Below, one piece after another: positions 620 to 51,248 of a DNA stretch of 64,000 nucleotides. The translations under genes were made by a program, and so were the position numbers. The notes below the pieces were generated by a model. The model was not told the origin of the DNA. It did no database searches and saw nothing but the letters and a program-made list of their open reading frames with translations. Each line of letters begins with the position of its first letter. The first letter of the stretch is position 1. Source of the DNA: Nemertoderma westbladi (taxonomy: Eukaryota > Animalia > Xenacoelomorpha); the NCBI GenBank assembly GCA_032718475.1, contig JAUCBJ010001608.1, forward strand, positions 1 to 64,000, given 5' to 3'.

Positions 620-770
620 GGGGGGGAAGTGTCCGGGGGGCAAGTGTCCGGGGGGCAAGTGTCCGGGGGGGAAGTGTCCGGGGGGGAAGTGTCCTACTTG
701 GGCGGGGGGGAAGTGTCCGGGGGGGAAGTGTCCGGGGGGGAAGTGTCCGGGGGGGAAGTGTCCTAGATCC
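620..770. repeat. About 15-bp G-rich tandem array (GGGGGGGAAGTGTCC)n, probably the repeat-rich terminus of a DNA transposon
   Basis: About 9 units ending TCCTAGATCC at 770, directly abutting copy A's LTR and replacing its last ~6 nt. Confidence 0.7.
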
Positions 771-1950
771 GCTTTTAGACCTTTAGCAGTTTAACCTGCC
801 AATTTTAGGTGTCTTCTAGGTTATAAATCGACTTTAGCCTATAACAAGTATTTGATACACATAAAGTTACATTAGCCGAAGCCAGCCTATGCGCGACCAT
901 TCACCCACGGTTAAGGGAGACTGGATTCGGATGCTCTGACCTTATTGCGGTGTAGACTTACTGTACTATTCGATTGATCGTTAATATAATATCTCTGACA
1001 AATATTATTCACTTTCGGGAAATATTAACAGTTCCTTTAGGACGTGGCGCTCTAAGTATGTAAACAGAGTTATGACTTACACTAAACACAACGGGATGGC
1101 TATTGATTTTCGTATAAAGCGCATTCTTTAGGAAATGCTTTGTTATCTGTCACACTCATGCACACTACCTGCACACTGCTGCACACTGATCTGCCGACCT
1201 TCACTAAATTTGATCATATATAAGGAGAATAGCAACCGACACATGTAGGGTCTATGAAATAGCATTCAATTCACTCCAAAACCACTATAATGTAAGTCGC
1301 AATTGCTACAGGTAACCGGTCTCTCTAACCTTCAGTATATCAAGAAGATTGGGGTTTTATGATTATTTATCGATATTCTCCAAATATAACAACATATCCA
1401 TCAACTGCTAACAATTAATAACCGACAGTAAATAGCAGTAAAATAATGCGGTGAAAGGATGTATAGTATGAATGAGTCTGATTGTATGCGCATTTGTTGA
1501 TAACAGTTATACGTTTCTATAATCAAAGCCGTTCTAATGTTTGGCTAAAGTCTGAAACACAGAATAATTCCAAAGCCGATGTTCTGGGCTCAGGAAAAAA
1601 GGTAAACAAAGACCATAATGCATTGCGCGATCTTCCGTAGGCTTCTGTACAAGATAAAATGAAAATCGCTCTGATTGGTCGAGTGAGCCGAACAAAGAAA
1701 GCCAAAAAGCTCCACATCGACATATCAGCTGATAGATGTCGTCATCTGAACTACACTGTATTAAGAGTATTTTGGCGTATTGCGGCATAAAATGGCTTGT
1801 TATGTCCGCTAAAGTACACATACAGAAAAATGGCTTTTTATGTCCACTAAAACACCTACACAGTAAGAAAACGGCTTTTTATGTCCGCTAAAACACCTAC
1901 AGAGTACTTTGCGGGGAAAATGACTAGCTAGATCCGCAAAAGCCTTTACA
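771..1950 (-). repeat. 3' LTR of copy A
   Basis: Starts TGTAAAGGCTTTTGCG on the minus strand right after the PPT-like CTGGGAGCGG, as in copy B; homologous but clearly diverged from the B LTR; three ~40-bp internal repeats at ~1793-1900. Confidence 0.9.
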
Positions 1951-19830: not shown

Positions 19831-19842
19831 TGGTAGCAGAGC
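19831..19842 (+). promoter_or_regulatory. Primer-binding site complementary to initiator tRNA-Met
   Basis: TGGTAGCAGAGC, 1 nt after the 5' LTR; characteristic of GalEa Copia elements. Confidence 0.9.
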
Positions 19843-26370: not shown

Positions 26371-26449
26371 ATACCCATAGATAACGACTTATAATTCTAT
26401 AATGCTTTATTTAATTAATACAAATTTTATTACACTTCACATCCACTCT

Positions 26450-26630
26450 GACCCTTTTAACACGTATTTACTGCATCTCATTTTAAATTTAATACGAATA
26501 TATTTTATCTCATTTTTACGACATCAGAGACCGACCCTTTTATTACGTATTTACTGCATCTCATTTTAAATTTAATACGCATATATTTTATCTCATTTTT
26601 ACGACATCAGAGACCGACCCTTTTATTAAT
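26450..26630. repeat. 83-bp tandem duplication
   Basis: GACCCTTTTA unit starts at 26450, 26533 and 26616. Confidence 0.85.
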
Positions 26631-27134
26631 ACGTATATATATATATTTCATCTTATTTTAATACAAATATTTCTGTCTAATTTCATATAACATCCAGTCT
26701 TCTGACCCTTTTAACTTCTTCGTTTAATCTCATAATTAGCACGGCCTTTTTAAGACCAATTACATACAGTAATAATTTTAACTCGATGTATTTTAATGTA
26801 CCTTAAATAATTATTCACTCATATTTTAAACTAAGTAATGTATGAAATGTATGTAATGTATCTTTTATGGGGGAAACCCCATCACCATATAATACTATAG
26901 TTAAATTGTCAATGCAGTCTTTGTTCAGTCTAAGTTATGGTGTAAATTTATATTAATAATAAAATAATAATATCAATAAATTACAGTATGTTATAAATAA
27001 GTTAGCTTATATTTATGGTGGCGTTTGGAGCCATGTTATAATAATATAGCTAGGCCCTACTGGTTATTAATAGCTATACCCGGCCTACCGGTAGGTAATG
27101 CAGTAGGCCTATCTGGCTGTCAGAGAAGTTTCTC

Positions 27135-27225
27135 TATTGTTTACGTGGTATCCAATGATGGCGTTAAGTACTGTCCCCTTAGCGGACATTACTTAACGCC
27201 ACCATGGGTTACCACGTAAACAATA
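27135..27225. repeat. 91-bp near-perfect palindrome
   Basis: TATTGTTTACGTGGTA...GGCGTTAAGTA pairs with TACTTAACGCC...TACCACGTAAACAATA. Confidence 0.85.
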
Positions 27226-27891
27226 ACACCAAATACAATACTAAATGTACAGGCCAATACAATGCTGTAATGTCCTCTAAAGTTGTAAAGTGCTAAATAA
27301 TAACTAAGACTAACGGCGTTGAGTATGCCTAATATTACAATTTTGGAATAAAACTACATACATACTTGTTGCAAAGCACTTTACAGTATTCTGATCGTCG
27401 TAGCTTTATTTCCACTCACTCACTACGTTCGTTCGTGTAACAAAGCACTCAGATCATCACACTATAAAGTGCTAATTTACACAGAAGCATGAAAATAGTT
27501 AATAGTAATCAAAAATCAGAGTAGCGTGTTAAACAGCAGTACTTGTGGTACTGCAGAATATCAGGCAGTAACAGACAAAAACTCGTACCGATACAGTGGT
27601 ACGGTAGGACAGTACAGACAAATTAATTTAGTATATTGGACAAATATAATGAAGTTATTATTATGGGTATTTAGTTTTAATCTAATTATATATAAAATAA
27701 ATAAGGATGTAGTAGTACGTATGAGTTATTGGTAGATAGGTAGTGGTATTTTACAGTGCATATTACAGTCAATCATTTATATTTTGGTGTCTTCATCTAT
27801 AATGGTGTATTCTTGTGTACTTATTGGTGTATTATTCTTGTCAGTATTATTGTGAGTTTGTTGTCAGTATTGTTGTTATTTTTATTGAGTA

Positions 27892-27963
27892 TTGACGTCT
27901 AATATGTCGCTTGGAGCTGGGGGCAGTCAGCCCTAGACGTAATAAAGATTAACTTAACTTATA
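27892..27963 (+). mobile_element. 72-bp retroposon 3' stub with an 11-bp target-site duplication
   Basis: Flanked by TTTATTGAGTA (27881-27891 and 27964-27974); ends AATAAAGATTAACTTAACTTA. Confidence 0.7.
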
Positions 27964-28073
27964 TTTATTGAGTACAGTATATATATATACTGTAATTTCA
28001 CGGCGGTAAATTAAGTCTATTTCATCTACTGTTGCGCTGTTATGACTAATTATAATATTACAGAAATACATAC

Positions 28074-28583
28074 ATAAAACTCTCCCACGGAAAAGTAGTT
28101 ATAAAATTCCGAATCAACGAAATCATTATCGATAACCAGCTCCGCATATTCGCTGTTCATCTGACAGAAAGGACGTCGTGCTCTTATTAGCTTGACATCA
28201 TTGAGAACATTGACAGATCTGCAATGTCTAGTCCTAAAATATAGAAATATAATATTATACAGTCGTTTACTGATTGTTAAGCAAGTCAAATATTCACAAA
28301 TAATGTAATTCAAATTAGGCCTGTCTAAATAAACAACAAACCTTGAGCATCTTGCCATACATTTTATTTGACTTGTGGTCACAACATCATCCAACACATG
28401 ATTTATAAGCTGTTTATGTTCTAAATATCCCGTATTCCCTGATCCATATGTTATTGACCTTTGACATGAGATGAACTCATTCTCTGCTTCTGCACTTCCT
28501 ACTATTCCCCATAACAACAATACGGCAATAATTAACATTAGATAAACTTGATGTGTATTAAATAACGAAGCAAAATGAGTCAT
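28074..28583 (-). CDS. Host gene, first two exons (28583-28342, 28233-28074): signal peptide plus PAN/apple-like domain
   Basis: Hydrophobic leader LMLIIAVLLLWGIVGSAEA; LINHV...CMARCSR/TRHCRSVN...CQMN cysteine pattern; 108-nt in-frame GT..AG intron 28341-28234; GTATGT donor after 28074. Confidence 0.8.
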
Positions 28584-29066
28584 AATGAACGATCGATAGC
28601 AGCATTATTACCGTTCTGCTGTTACTTTACTTACAAGTAAAGCATTAATACTCTTATGTATTTAACTCGCAGATACTGTATTTTAGATAAAATAATGTGA
28701 GGAACTTCTGTATCTATTGATTAGAATGATCGTATTAAATGAAAAATATATGTCAATAATGCACATGATTGATACGAAACTGATGGGAGTTTAATAAGAA
28801 AATAAATTATGTATTACTCTGCAAAGCTTAAAGCGCAACAGCGGAAACTGAGGAAAACCCAACCATGAAATATCTTAAATCCACCTGCCATCAGGGATTG
28901 GATAATTAGTTTAATCTTTGTTAGCACATTTAATCATTGATAACCTTTAATATGATTGTTAAATGTGTGATGGTGATCGATCACTAGTGAGGAAAACGAT
29001 TTGTTTGTTTGTGTTGAAACCTGACCGTTCCAAACAGTGTGGCGCGTAAGATTGTATTGGAATCTT

Positions 29067-32000
29067 TGGGACTCAAAGTTAGCCGTTTAACACTCCTGGT
29101 TTCTGTGGGACTCAAAGTTAGCCATTCAACACTCTTGGTTGCTGTGGGACTGAAAGTTAGCCTTTCAACGCTCCTGGTTTCTGTGGGACTCAAAGTTAGC
29201 CAGCCGTTCAACACTCCTGGTTTCTGTGCGACATATGTTTATTAAGTTAGCCGTTCCACACTCCTGGTTTCTGTGGGACTCAAAGTTAGCCGTTCAATAC
29301 TCCTGGGTTCTGTGGGACTCAAAGTTAGCCATTCAACACTCTTGGTTGCTGTGGGACTGAAAGTTAGCCTTTCAACACTCCTGGTTTCTGTGGGACTCAA
29401 AGTTAGCCAGCCGTTCAACACTCCTGGTTTCTGTGCGACATATGTTTATTAAGTTAGCCGTTCCACACTCCTGGTTTCTGTGGGACTGAAAGTTAGCCTT
29501 TCAACACTCCTGGTTTCTGTGGGACTCAAAGTTAGCCAGCCGTTCAACACTCCTGGTTTCTGTGCGACATATGTTTATTAAGTTAGCCGTTCAACACTCC
29601 TGGTTTCTGTAGCACTCAAAGTTAGCCGCTCAACACTCCTGGTTTCTGTGGGACTCAAAGTTAGCCGTTCCACACTCCTGGTTTCTGTGGGACTCAAAGT
29701 TAGCCGTTCAATACTCCTGGGTTCTGTGGGACTCAAAGTTAGCCATTCAACACTCTTGGTTGCTGTGGGACTGAAAGTTAGCCTTTCAACACTCCTGGTT
29801 TCTGTGGGACTCAAAGTTAGCCAGCCGTTCAACACTCCTGGTTTCTGTGCGACATATGTTTATTAAGTTAGCCGTTCCACACTCCTGGTTTCTGTGGGAC
29901 TGAAAGTTAGCCTTTCAACACTCCTGGTTTCTGTGGGACTCAAAGTTAGCCAGCCGTTCAACACTCCTGGTTTCTGTGCGACATATGTTTATTAAGTTAG
30001 CCGTTCCACACTCCTGGTTTCTGTGGGACTCAAAGTTAGCCGTTCAACACTCTTGGTTGCTGTGGGACTGAAAGTTAGCCTTTCAACACTCCTGGTTTCT
30101 GTGGGACTCAAAGTTAGCCAGCCGTTCAACACTCCTGGTTTCTGTGCGACATATGTTTATTAAGTTAGCCGTTCCACACTCCTGGTTTCTGTGGGACTGA
30201 AAGTTAGCCTTTCAACACTCCTGGTTTCTGTGGGACTCAAAGTTAGCCAGCCGTTCAACACTCCTGGTTTATGTGCGACATATGTTTATTAAGTTAGCCG
30301 TTCCACACTCCTGGGTTCTGTGGGACTCAAAGTTAGCCATTCAACACTCTTGGTTGCTGTGGGACTGAAAGTTAGCCTTTCAATACTCCTGGGTTCTGTG
30401 GGACTCAAAGTTAGCCATTCAACACTCTTGGTTGCTGTGGGACTGAAAGTTAGCCTTTCAATACTCCTGGGTTCTGTGGGACTCAAAGTTAGCCATTCAA
30501 CACTCTTGGTTGCTGTGGGACTGAAAGTTAGCCTTTCAACACTCCTGGTTTCTGTGGGACTCAAAGTTAGCCAGCCGTTCAACACTCCTGGTTTCTGTGC
30601 GACATATGTTTATTAAGTTAGCCGTTCCACACTCCTGGTTTCTGTGGGACTCAAAGTTAGCCGTTCAACACTCCTGGTTTCTGTGGGACTCAAAGTTAGC
30701 CAGCCGTTCAACACTCCTGGTTTCTGTGCGACATATGTTTATTAAGTTAGCCGTTCCACACTCCTGGTTTCTGTGGGACTCAAAGTTAGCCGTTCAACTG
30801 TCCTGGTTTCTGTGGGACATATGTTTATTAAGTTAGCCGTTCAACAGTCCTGGTTTCTGTGGGACTCAATGTTAACCGTTCAACACTCCTGGTTTCTGTG
30901 CAAAATATGTTTATTAAGTTAGCCGTTCCACACTCCTGGTTTCTGTGGGACTCAAAGTCAGCCGTTCAACACTCCTGGTTTCTGTGGGACTCAAAGTTAG
31001 CCGTTCAACACTCCTGGTTTCTGTGGGACTCAAAGTTAGCCGTTCAATACTCCTGGTTTCTGTGGGACTCAAAGTTAGCCGTTCAAAACTCCTGGTTTCT
31101 GTGGGACTCAAAGTTAGCCGTTCAACACTCCTGGTTTCTGTGGGACTCAAAGTTAGCCGTTCAACACTCCTGGTTTCTGTGGGACTCAAAGTTAGCCGTT
31201 CAACACTCCTGGTTTCTGTGCGACATATGTTTAATAAGTTAGCCGTTTAACACTCCTGGTTTCAACACTCCTAGTTTCTGTGGGACTCAAAGTTAGCCGT
31301 TCCACACTCCTGGTTTCTGTGGGACTCAAAGTTAGCCGTTCAACTCTCCTGGTTTCTGTGGGACTCAAAGTTAGCCTTTCAACACTCCTGGTTTCTGTGC
31401 GACATATGATTTTATTCAATTAGCCGTTCAACTCTCCTGGTTTCTGTGGGACTCAAAGTTAGCCGTGCAACAATACTGGTTTCTGTGTCACATAAGTATA
31501 TTAAGTTAGCCGTTCCACACTCCTGGTTTCTGTGGGATTCAAAGTTAGCCGTTCAACACTCCTGGTTTCTGTGGGACTCAAAGTTAGCCGTTCAGCACTC
31601 ATGGTTTCTGTGCGACATATGTTTATTAAGTTAGCCGTTTAACACTCCTGGTTTCTGTGAGACTCAAATTCAGCCGTTCAACACTCCTGGTTGTTTCTGT
31701 GGGACTCAAAGTTAGCCGTTCAACACTCCTGGTTTCTGTGAGACTCAAAGTGAGCCGTTCAACACTCATGGTTTCTGTGCGACATATGTTTATTAAGTTA
31801 GCCGTTTAACACTCCTGGTTTCTGTGAGACTCAAAGTTAGCCGTTCAACACTCCTGGTTTCTGTGGGATTCAAAGTTAGCCGTTCAACACTCCTGGTTTC
31901 TGTGGGACTCAAAGTTAGCCGTTCAACACTCCTGGTTTATGTGCGACATATGTGTATTAAGTTAGCCGTTCAACACTCTTGGTTTCTGTGCGACTCAAAG

Positions 32001-32390
32001 TTAGCCGTTCAACACTCTTGGTTGCTGTGGGACTGAAAGTTAGCCGTTCAACACTCCTGGTTTCTGTGGGACTCAAAGTTAGCCGTTCAACACTACTGGT
32101 TTCTGTGAGACTCAAAGTTAGCCGTTCAACACTCCTGGTTTCTGTGAGACTCAAAGTTAGCCGTTCAACACTACTGGTTTCTGTGAGACTCAAAGTTAGC
32201 CGTTCAACACTACTGGTTTCTGTGAGACTCAACGTTAGCCGTTCAACACTCCTGGTTTCTGTGCGACTCAAAGTTATCCGTTCAACACTCCTGGTTTCTG
32301 TGCGACATATGTTTATTAAGTTAGCAGTTCAACTGTCCTGGTTTCTGTGGGACTCAAACCGTTCAACACTCCTGGTTTCTGTGGGACTAA
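29067..32390. repeat. 39-bp satellite array, left part
   Basis: Unit CTCAAAGTTAGCCGTTCAACACTCCTGGTTTCTGTGGGA with periodic longer variants containing GCGACATATGTTTATTAAG. Confidence 0.97.
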
Positions 32391-33591
32391 TGTAAAAGCT
32401 TTTGCGTCATTAACCGGTTATTTTCCCTTAAAGTACTCTGTAGTTGGTTTGCCAGGCATAAAAGGGCCGTGTCCTTGCTGTACTGGTGTTTTAGAGGACA
32501 TAAAAGTCATTTCTTATGTATTTGTACTGTATTTGTACTTTAGAGGACGTAATCCGCAATCTCGTGACGCGATAAGCTAGATACTCTTGAAAACAGTGTC
32601 GCTACCATGACGACGGCTAACAGCTGATATTGCCACGTCGACGTTTCTTTGTTTCTTTGTTCTCTCGTTGTTCGGTTGACCAATCAGAGCGTTTTTTGTC
32701 TCTGTGTTGGAGGTGTATACAGAAACTCAGTAGTTCAGTGTTATGTTTTTTGCTAGAGCCTAAGAACATCGGCCTTTGGCACCTACGTATATCAGCATTC
32801 TTTAGCTTTACATTAGTAGGCTTAATTATAGAACGTATATCTGTTATCGAACGAACTTAACAATCCAAATCGACCTACCTACATACAATCTTATCATACA
32901 TATCTATGCAATTCATATCTTACATTACTGCTTTTGCTGTTGGTTATTCGTTATATTTGTTGATGAAATATTATATCGGAATACTGATCAATAGTCAGAC
33001 ACCCCACCTTCTTGATATACTAAAGGTTAGAGAGACCGGTTACAGATAAACGATTGCGACCTATGTATGTTAAGTGGTTTGAAGTGAATCTAATGCTATT
33101 TCATATGCCCAACATAAATTGTCTGTTGCTCTCTTTATACGTGACCAAATTTAGTGAAGGTCGGCAGATTAGTGTGCAGTATTGTGCAGCATTGTGTATG
33201 ATTGTAACTGATAACAAAGCATCTCCTAAAGAATGTGCCATATACGTTAATCTATAGCCTTTTCGTTGTGTCTAGTTTAAGTCATAACTCTGTTTACATA
33301 TTTAGAGCGCCATGTCCTAAAGGAACTGTTAATATTTCCCGAAAGTGAATAATATTGGTCAGAGATTATATATTACGATCAGTCGAATAATACGGTAGGC
33401 TTACACTATCAATCATTAAGCTCCGAACTCAGTCTCCCGGGTATATCCAACGGGTGAATGATTGCGCATAGACTGGCTTCGGCTAATGTAGTGTATCAAA
33501 TACTCGTCATAAAGCTAAAGAATATATATCATCTAAAAGACATTCTAATTTTGGCAGGTTAAACTGTCAAAGGTCTTCAAAAGCGCAAACA
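32391..33591 (+). repeat. 5' LTR of copy B
   Basis: TGTAAAAGC...CGCAAACA, direct repeat of 50048-51248. Confidence 0.97.
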
Positions 33592-33602
33592 ATAACAGAT
33601 AT
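33592..33602 (+). promoter_or_regulatory. Candidate self-priming site in place of a tRNA PBS
   Basis: ATAACAGATAT is the exact reverse complement of LTR 32837-32847 ATATCTGTTAT; no TGG next to the LTR. Confidence 0.6.
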
Positions 33603-33872
33603 TGCTTCTGGATTGCGGTGTAAGCAATCTAGTATAAAGTACCGGTCGACCGGTAACCAGTAGGCCTGACTGCCTGATCATCCGGACCGGTATCTACTTA
33701 CGGTACAGGTACAGCAGTATTATTCGATTGTGGTATTGTATACCGGTAGGCTGTTTAAGAGATTAGGGACTGTACACCCCTTGTTTCTTTTGGAGCTTAC
33801 TTATTTCTGTCAGTTTTATTTATTTGTAGGCCAGTATTGAGCAGAAGGCGTGTAAGCCTGTTCGGATTGTAC

Positions 33873-34440
33873 AGATAATTTGTAGGCTTGACTGTTGGCT
33901 AACTGTTGATTAGGTTTGAACGGATTGCAGTGCATGTAGAGTGTATGTCCGATAAAGAACGGTTAGGAAGTAGGGGCAGCCATTGCTGTAAGGTAAACCC
34001 CCATCTAAAGAATAAGTCGTACTACTGGGTTAGAACGCATACTACTTAACCATTTCGGAGTCCGCATGTCCTGTGGTTTATTTAGGCCTGATAGGAGTCC
34101 GCCGGCGTTTGGTCTGTACTTTGTTTGTGTAGTCTGTATGGGTAGCGTATAATTTTATTTAGATAATTTGTAGGCTGGATAGTTGTCTGGCTGCTGTTGG
34201 GTTTGAGGAAATTTCGGTGTGTGTAAAGCATCTGTCCAATAAAGAACGGTTAGGAAGTAGGGGCAGCCATTGCTGTAAGGTAAACCCCCATCTAAAGAAT
34301 AAGTCGTACTACTGGGTTAGAACGCATACTACTTAACCATTTCGGAGTCTACATATACCGTAGTTTGTTTAGGCTTGATAGTAGTCTGTCAGTATTTGGT
34401 CTGCACTTTGTTTGAATGGTTTGTACGCGTAGCGTAATAT
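33873..34440 (+). repeat. 287-bp-period tandem duplication in the leader with an identical 111-bp core
   Basis: 33952-34062 equals 34239-34349; the flanks of the units are visibly diverged. Confidence 0.9.
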
Positions 34441-35449
34441 TTATTATTCAGAGTTTATGCGATTATTCGCAACATTCATATTCCCCAAGTTTATTCCTAC
34501 AGTAATTGTGTTTGTTATACATACCGTTATAGTTAAACTAACCCCGGTACTATACGGGCTGCTCGGCGTAGGTAAAGACTGGTGATTTTGTGCACCGGTC
34601 ACTCCAGCAGATGCCGTGGTTCTTTTAGCTGTTCAAGTATTTTTAACTACTAATTATTGTTGTACAAGTACTTGTACCTAATTTAGGGTTTAGTGTACAG
34701 TGCTTTCCGAAAGCAATTAGTGTGTAGGCAGTATATTTGTGTTGTAAAGTGGTTAATAGGCACGTTGGTTCTGGTAGACCTCGGTAATTAACTTCTAGAT
34801 AGGGACACTCCGTGATACATAACGTAGTACCTATAGCGATACGGTTATAGGTCGTCAGGCGGTGGTATTTTCCTATCTGGACAACGCAGTATATTTACTA
34901 CTACTTATTATTTTCAAATACCGTAGTAACCTGTCCGTTGTAATAACCAGATATTCTAACCCTTTGTTAGGCTGGTTAGTAGACTTCTTGTAAAATTACC
35001 CTAAAAATTCGTATTTGTGTATTTGTAATTAAAATTTTTGTGTTTATTTAGAGATTGTAATCTCAACCCGAATTGTACGTAATTTGTAGTATTAAGTAAC
35101 TTAGGTAAATTAGAATTATTTGTTTTAGTGTCTAACAAGTAGCACTCCACTGAGAGCGCACAACTTATGTGTAGTGACTCCCCCAGAAATAATAACATTT
35201 ATTTCAAACATTGACAAAACCCATTAAACGGGTATATATATATTATAAATCAACTCAAACGATTTATAAATAGTAGGCCTGCCATACCACAATTAGGTCT
35301 CAATATCAGTTGGACTACTGCTTAAATAACGGTAATAAAGTAAGTTAAAGTAACCAAGAACCCTTAAAATTCAGAAATTCAATTATTCTAAAATAATTGA
35401 CATACCGGTATTTCCAATAGGCTTATTATATTTATTTAAATAAACTTAA

Positions 35450-36986
35450 CCCTATTAAACCCGGGGGGGGGGGGGTCAATATGACCCCCCGTGGTTTTTT
35501 TATTATAATTCTGAAACAAACGCAGTTGGGAATCTGAAATTTTATGACTTTTCCTAAAAATCATTGTCTTCCTATTAGTGTAAACCGTTTTCAAAAATTT
35601 TGGGTAGTTTTCGAGTTATAGGACCATTTTTTAACCCTACTTTTGGCACTTTTTTTGAGACGTTTTTTGAAAATTACATTTCATTAAATATTAATTGTAA
35701 CATCTCTATTTTTGATTACACCGGTTTTTTGGTGTTAGCAATTGGATGGAATTCATATAAATTGATTTATAAATTTCAAACTTGTTTTTTTCGGCGGGTG
35801 CCAAATTTTGGTGCCAGCACCAAATTTTGAAATATTATGTCAATTTTGTAAATTGATTGTTTGTAACTTGTTTTTTACGCAATTGGGGTTTTTTGGGGTT
35901 CTGGTTTCTAAGAAATATATACGAGTTGCACCAAGCGTATCAAACTTGTATTTTTCGGTGCTGTGTGCAAATTTTGGTGCTAGCACGAAATTTTGAAAAT
36001 AAATTCAATAGATAAAATTGCTTGTGACAATTTATTTCTTGCATTTTAGAGGTTTATGGCTTTTCTGAATTCAATAGAATATATAATTATCGAACTAGAC
36101 ATCTCAAACCTGTATTTTTCGGAAGTGGGTGCAAAATGTGGTGCTAGCACCAAATTTTGAAAACCATCACATATATCAATTGATTGTGTCATCTTGTCTC
36201 TTGCGTTATACGAGTTTGTTAGGGTTCTGAATTCAATGGAATCAGTAAAAATTGCATAATAGTTTTCAAACTTACATTTTTCGCCGGTGGGTGAAAATTG
36301 TTGTGCCAGCACCAAATTTTGGAAAATGAGTAAATTGATCAGTAGATAGTATCATCTTGTTTCTTGCGTTATACGGGTTTATGAGGGTCCTGAATTCAAT
36401 GGAATCAATAAAAACAGCACTGGACATCGCAAACTTGTACTTTTTGGTGATGGGTACGAAATTTGGTGCTAGCACCAAAATTTGCCAAATTACGCCGAAA
36501 AATACAAGTAGCAATGATCTAGCATATTTGAAATGTATTCCATTAGAATCAGCGCCCTAGAAAATCTGAAAATGTGAATCTATAGCATCGTATAAGTGAA
36601 TTAAAAACTGGTTACTTGTTTTTTTCATTTTTTTCCTACGCATAGAGGACTAAACAGCCATTTATGGTAATCATATCATTTTTAAATATTTTTCAATGTA
36701 TTTTGCGCCCCAGAAAACCTGTATTGAAAAACAATTAGCCGAAAAATGTAACTTTAAAATTTTGTGAAAATTGTGCACTACTTGTAGTTTTGGTGCTGCA
36801 ATATTACCACCCCAGTACATTTTTTCGAAAATTTTTTTTTCGGTCGGATCCAGACTAGTGATACCTATGTACAAACAAAAAATCAGACGTTTTCGTTAAT
36901 ATTTGTAGATTTTAGAGGGAGGGGTCAATATGACCCCCCCCCCCCCCGGTATTTGTACAACATTTTATAGCCCGGTACTAATAGGG
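35450..36986. mobile_element. Non-autonomous piggyBac-like DNA transposon inserted in the leader of copy B
   Basis: TTAA TSD (35446-35449, 36987-36990); termini CCCTATTA...TAATAGGG; subterminal GGGGTCAATATGACCCC at both ends; absent at the matching site of copy A (~18520). Confidence 0.88.
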
Positions 36987-37447
36987 TTAAGCTGAAATCA
37001 TACCGGTATTCTGTAATTAATTCTAGTTAATAATTATACTTGTATTATATATACTATAAGTGTAAACTGCATACCGGTATCCACGATAGGCCTATTATAT
37101 ATTTATATACTTGTGCTGAAATCATACCGGTATTCTGTAATTAATTCTAGTTAATAATTATACTTGTATTATATATACTATAAGTGTAAACTGCATACCG
37201 GTATCCACGATAGGCCTATTATATATTTATATATATTTGTGCTAAAATTACCTACCGGTATTCTGTGATAAACTAGTCTGTAATAATACTTATATATACT
37301 ATAAGCATACCGGTATACTATTATATTATATATCACGCTACACTGAGTAGCAGTATCGGTAATTAATTACTAGGCTAGCAGTTAATACTGAATTACTAGA
37401 CTTACTTAGACTGTAATAGCAGTAGACATTCAACTGTGTAAACAAAC

Positions 37448-40400
37448 ATGTCTGATACTAAGCAGAACCTGTCAGACAGTTTATTAGATGTAACTATCTG
37501 CGACTCAGATAGAGGTGTAGAACCGTCTAGTCCTAAGTTCAGTTCACCTCCCACTGTGAGGAAGGTCATCCCTCCAGTAGTAATAACAGAACCTAGGCTG
37601 GTCCAACATCGTAGGTCTATCATAGGCACTCGAGCTCAGGTCAAGCGGGACCAAGAAGCAGCGGAACAGCAACAACCCGCGAGCCAAGAACTTATTTCTC
37701 AGCGGCCCGACAGCTCCAGTAGTGAAGATACTGTAGAACTGACACCCGAGCGCGGAGCAAAGATGCGGTTTATTCGGATCCCCTTCTCATCCTTCCTGCA
37801 GCCGTACTCACTAGGTTATTGATCGCGGTGGAAGAACACCAGATCGATTGGGCGAGAAGTAAGCGATCAACTAAAGATAGTTATGAGGGATACACAAGGG
37901 AAGAACTGAAGTCTATGGTCGAGTCGCAATGGAACTTCCCCGGACCCGGACTCCCGTTTGATTTATCAGAAGCTGCCTGGGAAGACATACACCGGATGGG
38001 AGTAGCCAAGGAAACCATCGATCCAGCTGTATGGAAGAGGTCCGCAGCCGGATAAGCACAAGGATTCTTCAGCTCTATGGAGCGAGTAGAAAAACAACTG
38101 TTTCAACAACCTCAAGGACCTCAAGAGCAGGGACAACTGCTTTATCAAGTTAGAGAAAGAATTCTGCGAATTAGGCTAATCTTATCGGCCTTTGAGGAGG
38201 CTTCTAAAAGAAGACAAGACACGTCGTTGCAAGTTGCCGTAAAGACTTGGTTTCAACGGGTGAGTCGCCAGGTTCAAGGAACAGCTCAGTGGAAAGCTCA
38301 GCTGGAGGAGCGCTCAACCCATGGAGAATCAACAGACGCTACTTTTTCCCAAGTGGAAAGTGAAGCGACGTTAGAGAAACCGCATAAGAGGGATGCCATT
38401 GACATCTATCTGTCAGACTATCAGCGTTTCGTAGGTGATGAAGAGTTGAGGAGAAGGTTGGACGGACTTAGCCCTAATAGTGAAGGAGCCCAGCGTGTGT
38501 TGGACGCCATCGATGTGGATATGAGAGCTGCGAACCAAGCTAAATTTGATGAAAGCATCCGCATCACTAAGGTTCAAGAAGAACAAGTAAAGAAAAAACG
38601 TATAGAAGACAGAAAGATAGCAGCAGCGGCAGCAGCAGTGGCAGAAGCAGAAAGAAAAGCGGCAGTGGCAGAGGCAGAAAGAAAAGCGGCCTTGGCAGCT
38701 GCAGTGGCAGAAGCAGAAAGAAAAGCAGCGACAGCAGCAGTGGCAGAAGCAGAAAGAAAGGCGGCAGTGGCAGAGGTAGAAAGAAAAGCGGCCTTGGCAG
38801 CTGCAGTGGCAGAAGCAGAAAGAAAGGCGGCTTTGGCAGCTGCAGTGGCAGAAGCAGAACGAAAGGCGTCTGAAGAGACTGCCCAACTAGAGTTGGAAAA
38901 TCTTCAAGAGAGACAATACAACTTTAATAAACAGTTAACAGCTAGTAATATGCAGATGATGAATCGATCTACTCCCAAAAGACAGGGTTATACATCATCT
39001 GAGGAAGGCGATACCACCGACACTGAAGGCGGAGGAAATCGATCTCGCCTAAGCAGACGTAAAAGAACATCCCACCGTCAAAAATTGCCTGATTTGCCTC
39101 CAGCTGTTAGAAGGCAACTAAATAACACCAACTTAGGTAGTACAGAACCCACAGACCAAATAATTACAATAGAGAGACTCCCTACTATAGTAGATGAGCC
39201 CGAAATAGTTAGGTCTGTTCCCGAAGCCACCCTTTCGGTCGTAGAGACACCTGTACTCCCTGAACCTACCTCTCAATTCCCTTTGCACAGCACTAAGCTA
39301 CCTGTGCCCAGCAGAACAGTCCGTGAGACAGTTCATGCCCTGGACTCCGAGCGAAATATCCATGATTTGTCGCCCGTTGTCCCTCGTCCGCCCGCTACAA
39401 CGTTGGCGAATCCCGCTTCGGCGGTTGAATGGGTGGATGAGAGACGACGGGGGATGGATCTCCTGCTCGGACAGATGCAGGAGACCGTTCAGCAATTCAA
39501 GGGCACAGTAAGGGAAAGTAGGCTAGAGTTGCAAGAAGTGCAGCATAGTATCGCGCTAGAACGCGATAAATTAGTAAATGCACAAAAGGGTATACCACCA
39601 CCCCCTGTAACCATGTGTCAACCTGTTAGGTCTGAAGTATCTCATGCGCAAGGTGTGGAGCCTACACGCATCTATACTGCTAGCGAAGTAGAAACTCCTA
39701 TAGTGAACCCTATTAAGGGTAATTATAGACCTGTTGATAATGATATTCCCTATAGACCGGATCATAATCCAAGAAATTTATATACCGATAACTCGATATT
39801 AAATAACACGATGGCCCAAGAAAGTTTTACGCGTCAAATGGCTAGAACCGAAGCCCGGCAAGCGGTAAAGGTGGGAGAGATCGTCAAGTTCAATGGAGAT
39901 GAGATGAAATGGTTACCTTTTAATGAATATTACAAAGATAACATACAGAACTCTGTGCTATCTAATGGAGAGAAACTTAGATTCCTCATAGAGTGCTTGG
40001 AAGGATCTCCCAAGTTAATGGCGTTAAAGTTTATTGGACATCCAGACGGATTAAGACAAGTTTGGGATACACTAAACATCAGGTATGGTAATAGGAATAA
40101 CATAGCTGGGTATTTGTATGCAAAGTTGGTAGCGCCCCGAAAGTTTATTAGCAGCGGAATTATAGAGTTTTCCGATGAGATTCAGGAGATCTGCAGGCAA
40201 TTAGATTGGCTAGGTAAGTCTCATGAGTATCAGAATGCTATGGTTATTAGAGCAGTGGCTTCTACTTTACCGAAGGGTGGAGTAGGTACACGCTGGGATA
40301 AGAAAGTGCTATATATGATGGAACAACAACGACGAGACCCTACCATGGCTGATCTCATGTCATTCCTAGATGGAGAAGTGAAATTACAGCTCCTGAAACT

Positions 40401-43400
40401 GTCCAGAGAGAAGACACCGGAAAACAAGGTAAGTGAAAAACCCGTCGCTCGGAGAAAGGTAACACCAGTGTGTTATACAGATGATGGCGAAAGCCAGACT
40501 TCTCAAGGAGAAGATAGCGGGAAAGACACTGTTAGATCTTATTACGTAAATAAAATGCCTAAAGATCAGGTAAGTAAATTCAAGTCTCGAACAAATGACA
40601 GGAGAGAACAGGTAAGAAAAACTCCTCCTACGTCTCCCAAGAGAATTCAGGTGAGAAAGCCCGAAGAAAAAGCAAGTGTACACAATGTCACTCAGAGTAA
40701 GGTAAGTAACATCAAACCGAAATGTGCGCTATGTGATGGGACCCATCGCTTAAATATGTGTGATGAATTTCTAAAGAAATCATTAACTGAGAGACGTGAA
40801 GTCATGTGGGACAAGCGGTTGTGCTATAATTGCCTCAGACAAGGACACCAACGGCGAACCTGTTACTCTGACACAAGATGTGCCAAGTGCGGTGCGAAAC
40901 ATCATATCTTGTTGCACACTGAATTCGAGCGAAATAGTCCGAGTCAGGTAAGTGATTCCGAACTACATGTCCAATTCAGTGATGTGAACGACACTGATCA
41001 ATCTGAGATGGAAGGATTCTATACGGACGAGTTCTCCGACGAAGACGAATCCTGTTACATGATAAATACCACAGTGTATCGAGCACTCATCTATGAAAAA
41101 GATACAGACATTGACCTCGCTCTAACCACTTCTGATCGACAACCATTTTGGAAAGCGCCAACTTCCAATGTAGGGATTAGAGAATTTCCTGTGGTACAGG
41201 TAAGGGTCCACGGACCAAAAAGGAGTTATGTAGTGAATGCCCTCCTTGATTCCGGTAGTACAGGAACATTCATCGACAAAGAGCTAGCCGAAGACATATT
41301 CGATGGACAACCCAAGTTCCGAACTAAGCTAAACATGTCAGGAATTATGCAAGTTTGGAAATCCACAGTAACAGCAGATTATTATGTAGGTGCGTTGTCC
41401 ACCCCCCAGGACGAACTAGGAGAACATAGCATAAGGTCAGTGAAAATGGTGGCTATAAAGAACTTCGCTACTACTCAAGCAGACCTTTATAATTGGGACG
41501 AGGATGAGAGCATCCAACATCTCAAGATACCTCGATTCCAGACAGATTATCCTGGAGTGCAAATACTCATCGGTCAAAATGCGCATGAAGCGCTCGAGAC
41601 ATTAGAGAAACGACCTGCTCAACCGCAACCTCTACAAGTTTATGCGGGAAGAACTAGAGTAGGTTGGTACTTTACTGGCCCTTCCCGTAGAACTCTAATG
41701 GAAAGATTACCTAAAGAGCAGGTATACCAAGCACGAGAATGGGAAGTTGAGAACAGAGAGTTCGACGATCCAACTGAGGGAACTCCATACTCCTCAGACA
41801 ACGACGATATACATCAACTTTTTGATGAGGAAAATGCCATCGATCTCCTTAAGGAAAGCGAGACTTGGCAAAATCAAGTGAACTTATGTCAACTCCTTCA
41901 CCCATCTGAGCGAGACGACTATAACGACGAGCTTAATGACGTCATTGAACGTTATAACGCCAAGACTCGGGATGAACATGCCGTGAGATTCTTTACTCAA
42001 GAGGTCGTAGAGCCCAACTCCTACGATAAGGCCCTATCGGTGGAGGAAGAAAGAGCCAAGCAGATCCAAGCGACAACTACTCGTTGTCTTAAAGATCAAG
42101 GTAGGTATGAGATCGGACTTCCTTTCCGAAAGCGAGAACCAAAGTTCATTAACAACAGACCTTTGGCAGAGAAAAGAATTGCTCAACTACATCGACGCCT
42201 TACGGCAAATTCTTCAGCTAAAGAAATGTATAAAACACAGTTGAAGAAGTTTATTAGCAAGGGATATGCGGAGCTAGTACCGGAAGAAACTCCTATAACT
42301 GAGAGAACGTATTATTTAACTCACCATTACGTTCCCAAACCCGGTAAACCCCATGAAGTACGAGTGGTGTTCGACGGCTCCGCCCTCTATATGGGCCAAT
42401 CCCTTAATTCTGAATTGTTACCCGGACCCAACTTACTCCAATCCTTGTTGGGAATATTATTAAGGTAAGACAATACTCCATTGCTTTCGCCTCAGATATA
42501 GAAGGCATGTTCTTACAAGTCAAAGCGCTGGATAGGGATCGAGATAGTCTACGATTTTTGTGGTGGCCTGAAAGAGACCTCAATAAGAAACCGGTGGAGT
42601 ACTGGATGACCATCCAAGCCTTTGGGATAATCTCGAGCCCTTCAAACGCCTGTTCCGTGGTACGCACCACTGCGGATGACAACCGAGACACCTTCTCTAA
42701 AGAAGTGATCGACAATATTAAACGAGACATCTACATGGACGATAATCTGAAGTCCCTTCCATCAGTCGAAGAAGCCATTGAGGTCGCAAAGGGAACGGTA
42801 GAATGCTTAAAGAAAGGTGGATTTCGATTAACTAAATTCACCAGCAACTCTCGTGAGTTTCTGGAGTCGATCCCGGTAGAAGATCGAGGAACAAAAGACA
42901 TAGATCTAATAAAGGATGATCTCCCAGAAACTAAGACCCTTGGTTTGAAATGGGACACAGAAAGAGATATCCTGTTTTTCCAACTAAAACAGCGAGATAA
43001 TCCAGTTCGGACTAAACGGATATGTTTAAGTATCCTGAGCACTTATTTCGACCCATTGGGATTTATTAGCCCAGTTATATTAATTGCTCGGAGTTTAGTA
43101 CAACAAATGTGGCTTGAAAACCACTCATGGGACGATCCACTTAAGGGAGAATTATTAAAGAAGTGGATGAAATGGGAAGATTCTCTACCAGCCATCGAAA
43201 ACTTCATAATTTCCCGTTCATATTTTGGTCATGTTCTCCCTACGTATTCATATCAACTCCATGTGTTTGGAGACGCCAGCGATATGGGAATCGGTATAGT
43301 AGCCTACCTAAGGGTGGAAACTTCGGATGGAATTAAAGTCGCCTTGGTTACCTCTAAGGCATTAATAAACAACAAGTTGAAAGTTCCTCGAGCGGAGTTA

Positions 43401-45617
43401 AAAGCGGCTCTATACGCTACAGCCATCGGCCGGAATGTAACAGAACAGATCGACTATCCTCTGGAGAAAACTGTCTATTGGACCGACGCTTTACTCGTGT
43501 TGGAGTATATAACCAATGAAGTCTGTCAGTTCAGCGTCTTCGTTACCAACAGAGTAGCTATTATACTCAGTCGCACGACGATGGATCAATGGAGACATTG
43601 CCCCGGAACGATTAATCCAGCAGACATCGCTTCCAGGGGAGCAACTCCACAAGAACTGGTAGATACTCCAGACTGGTTAGGTGGACCCGACTTCCTCTAC
43701 AAAGAAGAAGAAGAATGGCCTCCTCATCTTACTACAGCAGAAATTAGACAGAACAAGGGAGCGGAGAAAGTCAAACCTAAAACTCAGGCGAGTAAATCGA
43801 AGTTATTCAAACCCACAGTGGATCTGTCTGTACTACATACTTCCGGAGACGACGCTTTGGATCAGAAACCCACAGCCACAAATAAACTCGTTGTGGAAAT
43901 CCGTGATAAGGATTGGAAATCTGGCATACCTGACATCTCGCAAGGACTCTCACCTCTCCTGCAGAGAGCGATACATCACTACAGTTCTTGGAATCAGCTC
44001 TGTAAGGCCGTTACATATTTAAAGAGATGTTTTCACCATCACTACTCTGGGATGAAAACAAAGGGTGATACCGCTCCAATCATATCAGTGCAGGTCCATG
44101 TTATTAAAGATCTCCCTAAATATAAGGTACCCGACAAGTTTCTGAAGGAGAAGATCAGTTATCAGGAGCATGAAGAAACCAACAAACAGTTGCTGAGACT
44201 CTTACAATGCTATGAAGATTCCGATAAGTATTTCCTGTTGTTGAGAAATCCACAGATGCGCCTAAGGGATCGTTTCTCTAGCACAATGATAGATGGGTTG
44301 ATACGTGTTGGAGGAAGGTTAACGAATGCACCATTATCCTTTGATACTAAGTTCCCCATACTCATTAGAAATCTTGAAATACAAGTCAAGATGATTGTAG
44401 ATGTTCACAGCAAACTTTATCATGCTGGTAGAGAACGAGTTCTTAGCGAAATTCGAACTCGCTATTATTTTTACAAACCCCGTAGAGCTCTGAACCAAGT
44501 TCTTAGGAACTGTATACCCTGTAGGAAAGCATTCAGTAGGCCTTTAACACAGAGAGAGGCAGAATTACCTAGGGAACGAGTAAGCTTTTATGAACCACCC
44601 TTTACTAATACCGGTGTGGATTTATTTGGCCCTATTGAAGTATATCGTGCTAGGACTATAGTCAAGAGATGGTGTGTAATCTTTGTTTGTATGACTTGTA
44701 GAGCCATCCATCTCGATATGGTGAACGATTTATCTACCAACAGCTTTCTATTAAGCTTACGACGACAGATCGCTCGCTTTGGCACTAGTAACACGATGAG
44801 ATCTGATAAGGGAACAAACTTCATTGGTGCCAACAATGAAATCAAAGCTTACGTCAAAGATTGGAACCAAAGACAGGTGGACGACCAACTACGAGTAACA
44901 GCGTCTAGTTGGACCTTCAACGCCGCCGACGCCCCTTGGTGGGGAGGAAGTTGGGAGAGATTAATAAGAAGCGTGAAGACAGCATTTCATTTTATAGTGC
45001 CTTGCCGCGCTTATCTCACCGATGAACTTTTGCGGACGTTAATGGAAGAAATCGCCGCCTATCTCAACGAGAGACCGCTTATGCCAGTCTCATCGAGTCC
45101 CGATTCCCTGGAAGCGCTAACACCCGCGCACTTCCTACTGAAGAAACCTGTAGCCATGCTCCCACAATCGGAAATCACAGACGGAGACGAATACTGCCGA
45201 CAAACTTGGCAACTCATGCAGTTGTTATCCCGTCGTTTCGCTGACCATTTCGAAAAACATTATCTGCCCACGCTACAACTTCGAACTAAGTGGTTTGCGC
45301 AGCAAGAAAACGTCAGCGCCGGAGACATGGTGCTTATTGTGGATGTGGATCTTCCACGTAAGCGGTGGCAGACAGGTCGTATCATCGAGACTCACATCTC
45401 GGATGACGGTTTGGTGCGATCGGTAGAACTCGTCGTCATGCGACGTAACTTCAAGAAACCGGGAATTGTCTTCAAGACGCAGCAGCTCAATCGCCCGGTG
45501 GGACGTTTATGTTTACTGGAAAGAGACAGAGAACTCTCCGGAAACTATGGGAGACAAGATACCCTTCCCACGACCACCTCCCTAATCCAACAAACATCTA
45601 GGGACTCCCCAACTTAA
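37448..45617 (+). pseudogene. BEL/Pao gag-pol of copy B, ancestrally one ORF of about 2700 aa with three lesions
   Basis: KFNGD Gag; CALCDGTH/CYNCLRQGH/CAKCGAKHH knuckles; LLDSGS protease; YMDD RT; FGDAS RNase H; GVDLFGP/SDKGTNF/PWWGGSWE integrase. Lesions: 7-bp deletion ~37765, TAA 38053-38055, 1-nt frameshift ~42465. Confidence 0.93.
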
Positions 45618-47392: not shown

Positions 47393-48193
47393 AGACAAAT
47401 ATAGGAGAACCACTGGAGAAGAGACGTGTGTTAATGTCCAGGGTCCATAATGTGAATAGTTTTCCCCGGGGCATGGGTGCTCGCGGGCGGTCTCCTTCGG
47501 GAGGCTGTAAATTTCTCTTCCCTCATCGTTTTCTTGTAATTCTTGTGATCAGTGTCACAATTAAAAGACAAGAATGAATGATGACGTCCAAAAAACGTCG
47601 GAAAACTGGTCCATTGTGGTATCTTATGGATACTACCCTATATCCTCCCTCCTCTTTACTCCCTTTATCCCTCTATACATCGCTATTGAAAATACAACCC
47701 ACTTCGTCACACCTTCTCTTCCCAATGCGCTCGGAACTTTGGGAGACGATCGACCAATCCTAGTTGTATCGTGGTATGGATCATACCACCTCTTAATAAA
47801 CCTCCCATCCCTTACTGTTAATCTGGATGCTCATATTGGTGTCCGCATCTCCTATTCATGTCACACCCTGTTGATATTTATGATATCAACTTCCACCCTC
47901 TCGTTGTTGATTAGAAAATCAACCACCAATGATTTCCTTAAGTCCACAACCGTGATACAAGGACTGAAAGGACACGCGGATAGTTTGTGAACAACTGGTA
48001 CCATTATGTGTCATAAATCTGGTTGTTCACCCCCTAATCACTGGGGATAAATTCATTTGGAGATAGTCATCGAATGATGCAATCCTCCTACTGAGATCGT
48101 ATTTCGGAATATTTCTGAATACGACATAGGTCTTCCCCTGCTCTCTACCACTACCATCAATGGAAGACATATTAGGCATACGACTTTCGGAAT

Positions 48194-49969
48194 ATGGAGA
48201 ACATTCCATACCCCTTCGTTGATACTCAGCTGATTGCTCCTTGGGCAGAAGGCCGAGGTTTCTTCCGCACTACGTATGCCAATACACCCAGCGGAATTAC
48301 TAAAGTACAACGAACCTCCATCGGACATCTTGCCTTTCAAGAATACGGATGGAATTTCAAGGTTGGAAATCCTATAAATTACCAACAAGTATACGGAGAT
48401 CATTATTCTCGTTTATACTTTGATGGACCGTTGACCGCACCTGGCGCCGTGTATAGCTTTATGAGTGTTCCACTTCGCCCCTCCTTAGCTATATACACGA
48501 TCTTTGAAAACGCAGCACTTGCCGGTTGTCTAGCCGATGTGTGCAGTCGTACCATACGCGCCCATCCCTTAGTACTTGGAACCAAACTCGCCAAGTTAGA
48601 TGAACACAATAAATTCATCCGCTTTGAATGTTTCAGGTGCTTTCTGACTCCGTTCCGTAACGTTGATAGTCAGTTCAAGGACCGCGCTCTGACCAAACTC
48701 AGCCTGAGAGACTCAGCGGCGGAGAAGCTAAATAGCGCGGGATTTGCCCTTTTTCAGGACGTTTGTATACAGAACTTGCACTCATCTGTTATACAAAGAC
48801 CCCGAATACCCACGGGTTATTCTGTCGTCGAAGTTCAGACAGTGGGTCCGCTTGCGGAGACAGCCGCACCTACCTCAGCTATGCAATTGGAAGACGAACC
48901 AATATGCTTAGAAGCTGAAGCGATTCAACCTACAGCGCCCCGGAGCAGCGATAACGACTACGTCTTAGAGTGGTATCAAGGTCCACAATGTCTCACCGCA
49001 TACGATTATCGACACGCTAACTATGTTTCTCGAAAACGTTGTCGATTATGCGCATCGAGAGACCATTTCACTCCTATGGACTCAGACGTACCCTGTTCTT
49101 ACTTCCACGAACAGCCAATGATGGAGATATATTGTGCGTATTGCAGAATTAATAACTCTCACATTTTTGCAGTCTGCCCCCAATTTATGACTCAATGCCA
49201 CCACTGTCAACTTAAAGGACATGCCAGTTATAATTGCCCCTTTAATCACGATTTAGAGAGCGTAGATGAAATGATTACCCTGCGCTACATTCGAGCTTGG
49301 GAAGCGAACGCGGATTTACATTGTGAGTCCCGTCATCGATACTACCCTGGACGCTCTTACGAGGGAGTTTACGCTTTCCATCCTTATTTATTAGCGTCTG
49401 TGGAACAAAAAACACGCGTACCGAGTTACGAGCTAATGAAGCGTGTTGGTGAGTGTATTTCCACCAAATTTGTTAGAAGATACCTTAGGAACGTCAATCC
49501 TAACGATATTACTTCATACCATTTGATCAATTATATCCGTCAAGACCCGGAGTATGGCGATTTATTTATCAACTCGCACCCTGAGTTACAGGAAGTATCT
49601 CGACGGCCCTACGAATATCGAGCCCGAGAACGCGAGCTGGAAAGAACTATCAAACCAAGGAAGTTTCTTACCACCCACGGTCCGCCTACCGCCATTGCCC
49701 AGACAACCCGTCAAGGACCCGTAGGAGCTGCTGTCCTGAGGCGTGCCCTAAAGGCTGTTAGACCTCGCTCCACGGAAGTTGATATCGATCAACCAGGTAC
49801 CTCGACCGGCGGATATACCGATCGCAATCCGAAACCTTCTGATGCAATTGTATTGCACCCTTCACCCAGGAGTTACAGCCCTCCTAGTAAAGTGGCTCGC
49901 CCCAAAGAGAAAAGGACTCTTACTAGCCTCAAAAAACTGCGTAAACGCCGTCCGCGCAAGAAAGACTAA
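48194..49969 (+). CDS. Accessory 591-aa zinc-knuckle/NLS protein (copy B)
   Basis: Intact ORF immediately before the PPT and 3' LTR; roughly 94% identical to the copy A protein by manual count, no indels. Confidence 0.9.
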   Translation: MENIPYPFVDTQLIAPWAEGRGFFRTTYANTPSGITKVQRTSIGHLAFQEYGWNFKVGNPINYQQVYGDHYSRLYFDGPLTAPGAVYSFMSVPLRPSLAIYTIFENAALAGCLADVCSRTIRAHPLVLGTKLAKLDEHNKFIRFECFRCFLTPFRNVDSQFKDRALTKLSLRDSAAEKLNSAGFALFQDVCIQNLHSSVIQRPRIPTGYSVVEVQTVGPLAETAAPTSAMQLEDEPICLEAEAIQPTAPRSSDNDYVLEWYQGPQCLTAYDYRHANYVSRKRCRLCASRDHFTPMDSDVPCSYFHEQPMMEIYCAYCRINNSHIFAVCPQFMTQCHHCQLKGHASYNCPFNHDLESVDEMITLRYIRAWEANADLHCESRHRYYPGRSYEGVYAFHPYLLASVEQKTRVPSYELMKRVGECISTKFVRRYLRNVNPNDITSYHLINYIRQDPEYGDLFINSHPELQEVSRRPYEYRARERELERTIKPRKFLTTHGPPTAIAQTTRQGPVGAAVLRRALKAVRPRSTEVDIDQPGTSTGGYTDRNPKPSDAIVLHPSPRSYSPPSKVARPKEKRTLTSLKKLRKRRPRKKD

Positions 49970-50047
49970 CTGTTTAGAGTATTTTTATATTTTAGAAACT
50001 GTGATTTGTTATATTTTATAGACTTAAATCCCATTTTCTGGGAGCGG

Positions 50048-51248
50048 TGTAAAAGCTTTTGCGTCATTAACCGGTTATTTTCCCTTAAAGTACTCTGTAG
50101 TTGGTTTGCCAGGCATAAAAGGGCCGTGTCCTTGCTGTACTGGTGTTTTAGAGGACATAAAAGTCATTTCTTATGTATTTGTACTGTATTTGTACTTTAG
50201 AGGACATAATCCGCAATCTCGTGACGCGATAAGCTAGATACTCTTGAAAACAGTGTCGCTACCATGACGACGGCTAACAGCTGATATTGCCACGTCGACG
50301 TTTCTTTGTTTCTTTGTTCTCTCGTTGTTCGGTTGACCAATCAGAGCGTTTTTTGTCTCTGTGTTGGAGGTGTATACAGAAACTCAGTAGTTCAGTGTTA
50401 TGTTTTTTGCTAGAGCCTAAGAACATCGGCCTTTGGCACCTACGTATATCAGCATTCTTTAGCTTTACATTAGTAGGCTTAATTATAGAACGTATATCTG
50501 TTATCGAACGAACTTAACAATCCAAATCGACCTACCTACATACAATCTTATCATACATATCTATGCAATTCATATCTTACATTACTGCTTTTGCTGTTGG
50601 TTATTCGTTATATTTGTTGATGAAATATTATATCGGAATACTGATCAATAGTCAGACACCCCACCTTCTTGATATACTAAAGGTTAGAGAGACCGGTTAC
50701 AGATAAACGATTGCGACCTATGTATGTTAAGTGGTTTGAAGTGAATCTAATGCTATTTCATATACCCAACATAAATTGTCTGTTGCTCTCTTTATACGTG
50801 ACCAAATTTAGTGAAGGTCGGCAGATTAGTGTGCAGTATTGTGCAGCATTGTGTATGATTGTAACTGATAACAAAGCATCTCCTAAAGAATGTGCCATAT
50901 ACGTTAATCTATAGCCTTTTCGTTGTGTCTAGTTTAAGTCATAACTCTGTTTACATATTTAGAGCGCCACGTCCTAAAGGAACTGTTAATATTTCCCGAA
51001 AGTGAATAATATTGGTCAGAGCTTATATATTACGATCAGTCGAATAATACGGTAGGCTTACACTATCAATCATTAAGCTCCGAACTCAGTCTCCCGGGTA
51101 TATCCAACGGGTGAATGATTGCGCATAGACTGGCTTCGGCTAATGTAGTGTATCAAATACTCGTCATAAAGCTAAAGAATATATATCATCTAAAAGACAT
51201 TCTAATTTTGGCAGGTTAAACTGTCAAAGGTCTTCAAAAGCGCAAACA
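50048..51248 (+). repeat. 3' LTR of copy B
   Basis: Preceded by PPT-like CTGGGAGCGG and followed by the TSD ACTAA. Confidence 0.97.

Follow-up and report, generated by a model that had tools for sequence, protein, structure and literature searches.

In retrotransposons, priming of minus-strand DNA by the element's own RNA has been shown for Tf1 only and has been inferred for Ty3/gypsy relatives and for the Copia TAR lineage. [quoted passage not shown] Tj1 was inferred to self-prime like Tf1 (PMC4600332), and self-priming was predicted for Tcn1 and Copia TAR under a rule for putative self-primers of at least 10 bp, placed 0–5 bp after the LTR (PMC6317226), both according to the accessible text. 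In the Ty1/copia superfamily, the available part of one source describes a tRNA-less site in the TAR lineage (Houba, Osr-1), with self-priming predicted by this same complementarity rule (PMC6317226), and that of another describes fungal GalEa elements without a PBS, which carry conserved inverted repeats at the PBS position and, according to their authors, no LTR complement (PMC5445492).

For the Belpaoviridae, the ICTV profile states that the PBS has 18 nt and is complementary to the 3′ end of a host tRNA, tRNA-Arg or tRNA-Gly, and that the genome measures 4.2–10 kb, in agreement with an earlier note on this DNA according to which BEL/Pao elements are described as tRNA-primed; it also calls their replication poorly understood (PMC8742986). 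We found no published BEL/Pao self-priming in the literature searched, which lay mostly outside subscription papers and supplements, possible places of PBS tables. The accessible text of the Sinbad paper (PMC554778) and of a BEL/Pao survey (PMC3118150) makes no mention of PBS, tRNA or priming, and that of four further papers (PMC13524379, PMC3601003, PMC8220671, PMC5443660) contains no BEL/Pao self-priming.

The window, by which we mean the whole 64-kb stretch of DNA analysed, holds a young LTR element on the + strand (32391–51248; 18,858 bp), here denoted copy B. Its two LTRs differ at 4 of 1201 letters (99.7% identity) and a 5-bp target duplication, ACTAA, flanks it (32386–32390 and 51249–51253); copy B is a recent insertion. 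It lies within a 39-nt satellite (29055–32390 and 51249–52331) that is organized in higher-order repeats of 129 and 414 nt. Its proteins match PF03564, PF05380, PF17921 and PF18701 above the curated Pfam cut-offs, in the order PR-RT-RH-IN, and gave no match to a chromodomain at E ≤ 0.001. Pol has 785 homologues at E ≤ 1e-20, with PF05380 in all 120 listed; the best relatives share 32–43% identity with it, and marine invertebrates account for most of the named ones. When 30 of the 122 RT-RNase H stretches were placed in a tree, computed without named references, copy B sat on a long branch (1.76) at an open fork. A metagenome scan with Pol yielded 1 short locus out of 19 pattern matches, which was left out of the analysis, and a 22-nt LTR pattern had no match among viral contigs and none among genome contigs. 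The transition from ORF1 to ORF2 involves a frame change inside RT, which may be a mutation, an assembly error or recoding. The acidic motifs of RNase H appear intact. The leader of 4.5 kb (33603–38055) contains internal tandem repeats of 287, 163 and 124 nt, which are 83–87% kept in copy A (see below) where present, and a non-coding gap of 2.5 kb separates pol from ORF3.

Judged by its proteins, copy B is of the BEL/Pao lineage and departs from the ICTV profile in its primer site. Like the Belpaoviridae it has TG...CA LTRs (0.2–1.2 kb in that family), a 5-bp target duplication, a DUF1759 gag, the PR-RT-RH-IN order, Peptidase_A17 and DUF5641; it differs from the profile in having no tRNA PBS, a length of 18.9 kb, the 4.5-kb leader and an extra zinc-knuckle ORF. 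With Tf1/Tf2 of S. pombe and the Tf1/sushi group (Tj1, Tosmo, Tcn1) it shares an 11-nt LTR-complementary PBS and the lack of a tRNA site. However, these are Ty3/gypsy chromoviruses, whereas copy B has BEL/Pao Gag and Pol and no detected chromodomain, and by this protein content it is not a member of the group; TAR and fungal GalEa likewise belong to another superfamily than copy B, and GalEa, unlike copy B, is reported to lack the LTR complement (available part of PMC5445492).

A second, diverged member of the family, copy A, lies on the opposite strand. Its 5′ LTR, its PBS and the first 1.07 kb of its leader are absent from the window (19250–29100 checked). A third LTR end of the family is found at 1–55 (+), with AT-rich DNA and no PBS behind it, and is likely a 3′ or solo LTR. 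In contigs of public sequencing runs the family is abundant and diverse; given this and the young age of copy B, it replicates without a tRNA site.

Table 1. Coordinates of the features of copy A and copy B in the 64-kb window.
Feature	Position	Strand	Remarks
5′ LTR, copy B	32391..33591	+	1201 bp, TG...CA ends
CCAAT-box block	32678..32691	+	14/14 identical in copy A; ~157 nt upstream of motif; likely promoter element
Conserved LTR block with candidate self-primer	32826..32848	+	22/23 identical between copies A and B
Candidate self-primer ATATCTGTTAT	32837..32847	+	exact complement of PBS
GATAACA, predicted alternative partner of primer 3′ half	33210..33216	+	7/7 kept in copy A
U5 hairpin just upstream of LTR end	33549..33572	+	predicted; three LTR ends, different letters
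Non-tRNA PBS ATAACAGATAT	33592..33602	+	adjoins terminal CA of 5′ LTR
Hairpin directly 3′ of PBS	33608..33632	+	z -3.8; 0/200 shuffles as stable
ORF1	38056..42468	+	gag (DUF1759, zinc fingers), protease, RT start
ORF2	42414..45617	+	RT, RNase H (Peptidase_A17), integrase (H2C2, DUF5641)
ORF3	48176..49969	+	597-aa orphan, three CCHC-type knuckles, before 3′ LTR
3′ LTR, copy B	50048..51248	+	second motif copy at 50494-50504
Copy A	770-19304	-	broken by nested BEL/Pao element; ends before own 5′ LTR
Copy A 3′ LTR	770..1950	-	73% to copy B LTR; motif variant at 1500-1510

No TGG stands at the LTR end of copy B, and the sole TGG within 33592–33640, at 33609, is not conserved, which bears out the claim of the earlier note that no TGG tRNA site follows the 5′ LTR. 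The TGG at 33609 was considered as a displaced tRNA site and rejected, because it belongs to a hairpin and because some family members carry other letters there, with compensation in the hairpin (33610 G>T together with 33630 T>A, and 33611 G>T together with 33629 C>A). The 11 nt abutting the terminal CA, also as the note had claimed, are exactly complementary to the motif at 32837–32847. Within the 64 kb, the reverse complement of ATAACAGATAT occurs only at 32837 and 50494. Primer and PBS are 744 nt apart in copy B, and the match covers exactly 11 nt without extending further, with a sharp end at 33602; at 11 nt and offset 0 it falls within the rule for putative self-primers. The predicted duplex of motif and PBS has -10.5 kcal/mol, compared with -6.2 for the crossed pairs of copies A and B. 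Two other elements of the same window served as controls: the nested BEL/Pao element has its TGG site 2 nt and the Copia element 1 nt after the LTR, and their LTR self-matches reach 4 nt at most. No tRNA gene was found in the 64-kb window, and an Rfam search of 32300–38100 returned one noise-level match and none above noise.

Could the complementarity be due to chance, in a copy that has lost its true PBS by decay? When the LTR was shuffled 20,000 times with dinucleotides preserved, 44 shuffles contained the complement at offset 0 (p 0.0022) and 100 contained it at offsets 0–3 (p 0.005), and of 16,435 internal 11-mers 5 had a complement in the LTR. For a genome scan these values are modest taken alone, as a large scan will include some elements that reach a single-element p of 0.002–0.005, and the frame change inside RT could be seen as a further sign of decay. 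Against this stand LTRs that are 99.7% identical and, above all, the data from the family, which carry the weight of the argument.

The motif of copy A, ATAACTGTTAT (1500–1510, - strand), has one change relative to that of copy B, and it lies, as the earlier note had proposed, in a conserved context: the only mismatch between the copies in the block 32826–32848 is at 32840, the partner of PBS position 33599. Identity between the copies around this block is 54–55% (68/126 upstream, 78/142 downstream), and no other such conserved block exists in the first 600 nt of the LTR. In the public runs, contigs have a high summed depth over 32808–32843, followed by a sharp fall; family contigs diverge from about 32848–32851, where other copies carry other letters. 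The 40 of 138 contig variants listed for this region do not include 32840, and the variant there comes from the comparison of copies A and B.

To follow the PBS through the family, contigs of four runs from four studies (X2–X5; 214, 109, 8 and 11 contigs, respectively) were aligned to 33548–33660 at 80% likeness, and variants were listed from a threshold of 2%. X2 and X3 are DNA studies and X4 is guessed to be RNA, available as contigs only. At 33592–33598, i.e., PBS positions 1–7, no variant was listed at ≥2% in any of the four runs, although this apparent invariance is biased upward as divergent contigs were trimmed into loose ends. The only PBS variant listed at ≥2% in X2 and X3 was 33599 A>T, with 57,204 of 115,652 in X2 (8 contigs) and 19,746 of 38,468 in X3 (4 contigs), these being summed depths of contigs, which do not equal copy number. 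X4 had the same variant at 10.7 of 19.6 summed depth (2 of 3 covering contigs), and X5 had no aligned cover at this site. T at 33599 is the letter that the LTR motif of copy A requires; a single change would hit it in 1 of 33 cases, or in 1 of 12 if only positions 8–11 are free. Thus, the PBS letter that the earlier note had predicted for A-type LTRs is present at about half of the summed depth in X2 and X3, with alleles seen site by site, as the contigs are too short to span both 32840 and 33599. The only other PBS variant listed, 33600 T>C, occurred in one X4 contig (depth 3.55) and could be an error. The alignment of several contigs breaks off at 33602, and the loose ends contain further PBS forms whose positions 9–11 are unlike both LTR motifs of the window; among the rows listed, these forms came from at least two contigs of X4, at least one of X5 and at least one each of X2 and X3. 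The PBS core is common to the family across several studies, a run labelled with a second organism among them. The PBS feature is real and family-wide, and these contig variants, with a shared core and the predicted variant, largely refute a chance match, to which we assign an almost negligible probability.

The same data bear on the idea that the LTR block is a U3 DNA promoter element and the PBS is primed by a host RNA, such as a tRNA fragment or small RNA, the complementarity being incidental. The block does look TATA-like (TTATAGAA, GTATAWCTG). Half-tRNA primers without TGG occur in Copia lineages (available part of PMC6317226). PBS position 8, however, carries two letters at roughly equal depth, and these are the partners of the two LTR variants. 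In tRNA-primed elements, the host primer resets the PBS to one sequence in each cycle; a host-RNA primer would do the same, yet position 8 is split, which disfavours this reading. The anticodon loop of tRNA-Asn fits only 6 nt of the PBS, which also counts against a host primer. Altogether, we regard a host-RNA primer as improbable.

In folding models, the PBS is predicted to be single-stranded between two hairpins. For the U5 hairpin the z values are -4.5 in copy B, -3.0 in copy A and -3.4 in the LTR end at 9–39. When the whole leader was folded with two different end points, the pairing probability of motif and PBS was 0.92–1.0 for RNAs starting at 32830–32837 and at most 0.19 for RNAs starting at or before 32826; with a third end point, an RNA starting at 32830 gave 0.63. 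As these foldings span 800–1000 nt, where the long-range model is unreliable, the values are only a hint. When the RNA starts further upstream, GATAACA at 33210–33216 forms a competing helix in the model, and forcing the helix of motif and PBS against it costs 2.9–8.5 kcal/mol. GATAACA is possibly a switch according to the folding, and its conservation may also be fortuitous, as the surrounding block is conserved too. The folding did not yield the three-duplex 'pretzel' of Tf1: the model consists of a central duplex and two local hairpins, one on each side of the PBS, and lacks the two duplexes that would join the PBS flanks to the LTR, in contrast to the structure described for Tf1 (available part of PMC10085805). 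As a separate observation, 33270–33390 is the most conserved part of the LTR (90–96% between copies A and B) and has the top depth in all runs; a packaging, dimerisation or 3′ end signal is possible there.

These structures raise the question whether the pairing is real and yet purely structural, joining the RNA ends or acting as a packaging or translation switch, with priming elsewhere. The predicted alternative helix with 33210–33216, kept in copy A, and the highly structured, conserved 3′ half of the LTR and leader would suit such a role. However, the TG...CA end requires that minus-strand synthesis starts at the LTR boundary, where the paired site lies exactly against the CA, and there is no other conserved primer site nearby, which makes a purely structural role very improbable.

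We consider it probable that the family primes its minus-strand DNA with its own RNA in some form. In a strictly Tf1-like geometry, which we favour with some reserve, transcription would start at 32837 or within about 7 nt upstream, the RNA would bend back so that its 5′ end pairs with the PBS, and cleavage behind 32847, likely by the element's RNase H, would free a 3′ OH from which minus-strand DNA would extend from the LTR boundary. During plus-strand synthesis the primer would be copied in turn and become part of the new PBS, and a change of the LTR motif would thereby pass to the PBS; such copying would account for the matched A/T polymorphism at 32840/33599 and for the abrupt stop of the match at 33602. 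By every sequence test run except the pretzel fold, the copy B family would appear to work like Tf1. Against the strict geometry, a TATA-like block would place the start downstream of the motif, and R plus U5 would be 755 nt. The main doubt concerns the block itself, which is TATA-like and whose 11 conserved nt upstream of the primer have no pairing explanation. Neither LTR contains AATAAA, ATTAAA or TATAAA, and the sequence therefore does not fix the borders of U3, R and U5.

Self-priming could also follow another geometry, in which transcription begins further upstream and the primer would be an extended 5′ fragment, a 5′ end made by splicing or trans-splicing, or the motif copy that the 3′ LTR contributes to the 3′ end of the RNA. 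This would fit the conserved block, which runs 11 nt upstream of the match and closes with a T-rich AG at 32831 in both copies (TTATAG at 32826–32831 being acceptor-like), as well as a duplex which, with G-U pairs and bulges, reaches 32830 (-14.2 kcal/mol); for upstream starts, moreover, 33210–33216 is predicted to occupy the 5′ motif. The exact match nevertheless breaks off after 11 nt, its extension as far as 32830 competes with a conserved hairpin and is not kept in the other PBS forms, and the two polyadenylation-type hexamers AATAAA and ATTAAA are missing from both LTRs. An intron splitting the primer was considered and none was seen: the motif is contiguous in copy B and none of the 8 joints listed splits it. 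Such another geometry seems rather unlikely to us, and the strictly Tf1-like one remains the reading that we follow.

Independent evolution of self-priming in a BEL/Pao lineage is plausible. In C. elegans, Cer7 reportedly uses an element-encoded primer, and BEL/Pao may thus already offer a precedent, though of another kind, for priming that does not depend on tRNA. The PBS begins ATAAC in both Tf1 and copy B, a likeness noticed after the fact (available part of PMC11042837). Tentatively, and as something possible rather than likely, we suggest that the BEL/Pao lineage reached tRNA-free self-priming alone and converged on the 3′ end of the Tf1 primer (PBS ATAAC), pointing to a shared rule by which RNase H would cut RNA:RNA; that the decoy at 33210–33216 would let only transcripts starting at the motif be copied; and that the orphan zinc-knuckle protein may chaperone this switch. 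If self-priming holds true here, it would extend to a third superfamily and to a transposon family that is at present spreading in an animal; neither tRNA supply nor tRNA fragments would then hold the element in check, and annotation tools would overlook it if they depend on a tRNA PBS.

The orphan protein of ORF3 is also open in copy A (2029–3819, - strand), with 94% amino-acid identity and a dN/dS of 0.07. It matched no Pfam family at 0.001 (weakly zf-CCHC_3, at 0.038) and had no match in the Atlas and none among 6097 candidates; among 1.84 billion representatives there was 1 weak relative, with two such knuckle units. By its sequence it is possibly an accessory RNA-binding protein.

Several further elements were identified in the window. 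The nested BEL/Pao element (9111–16055, +) is young and of another family, with 373-bp LTRs that are 99.7% alike, one ORF of 1881 aa, a TGG site 2 nt after the LTR and 28% identity to copy B in RT-RNase H. The Copia element (19685–24306, +) has 145-bp LTRs, and its PBS, TGGTAGCAGAGC, is that of metazoan GalEa (available part of PMC5445492). A frame of 1188 aa at 60394–63960 (+), open to near the end of the window, had no Pfam match; its motifs resemble those of family-B DNA polymerases of the Polinton/Maverick type. Two shorter ORFs lie upstream of it, at 59004–60110. An ORF of 524 aa with an RVT_1 domain was found at 24471–26045, and an element of 363 bp (19310–19672), whose terminal inverted repeats are 85 nt long, is located at the break of copy A.
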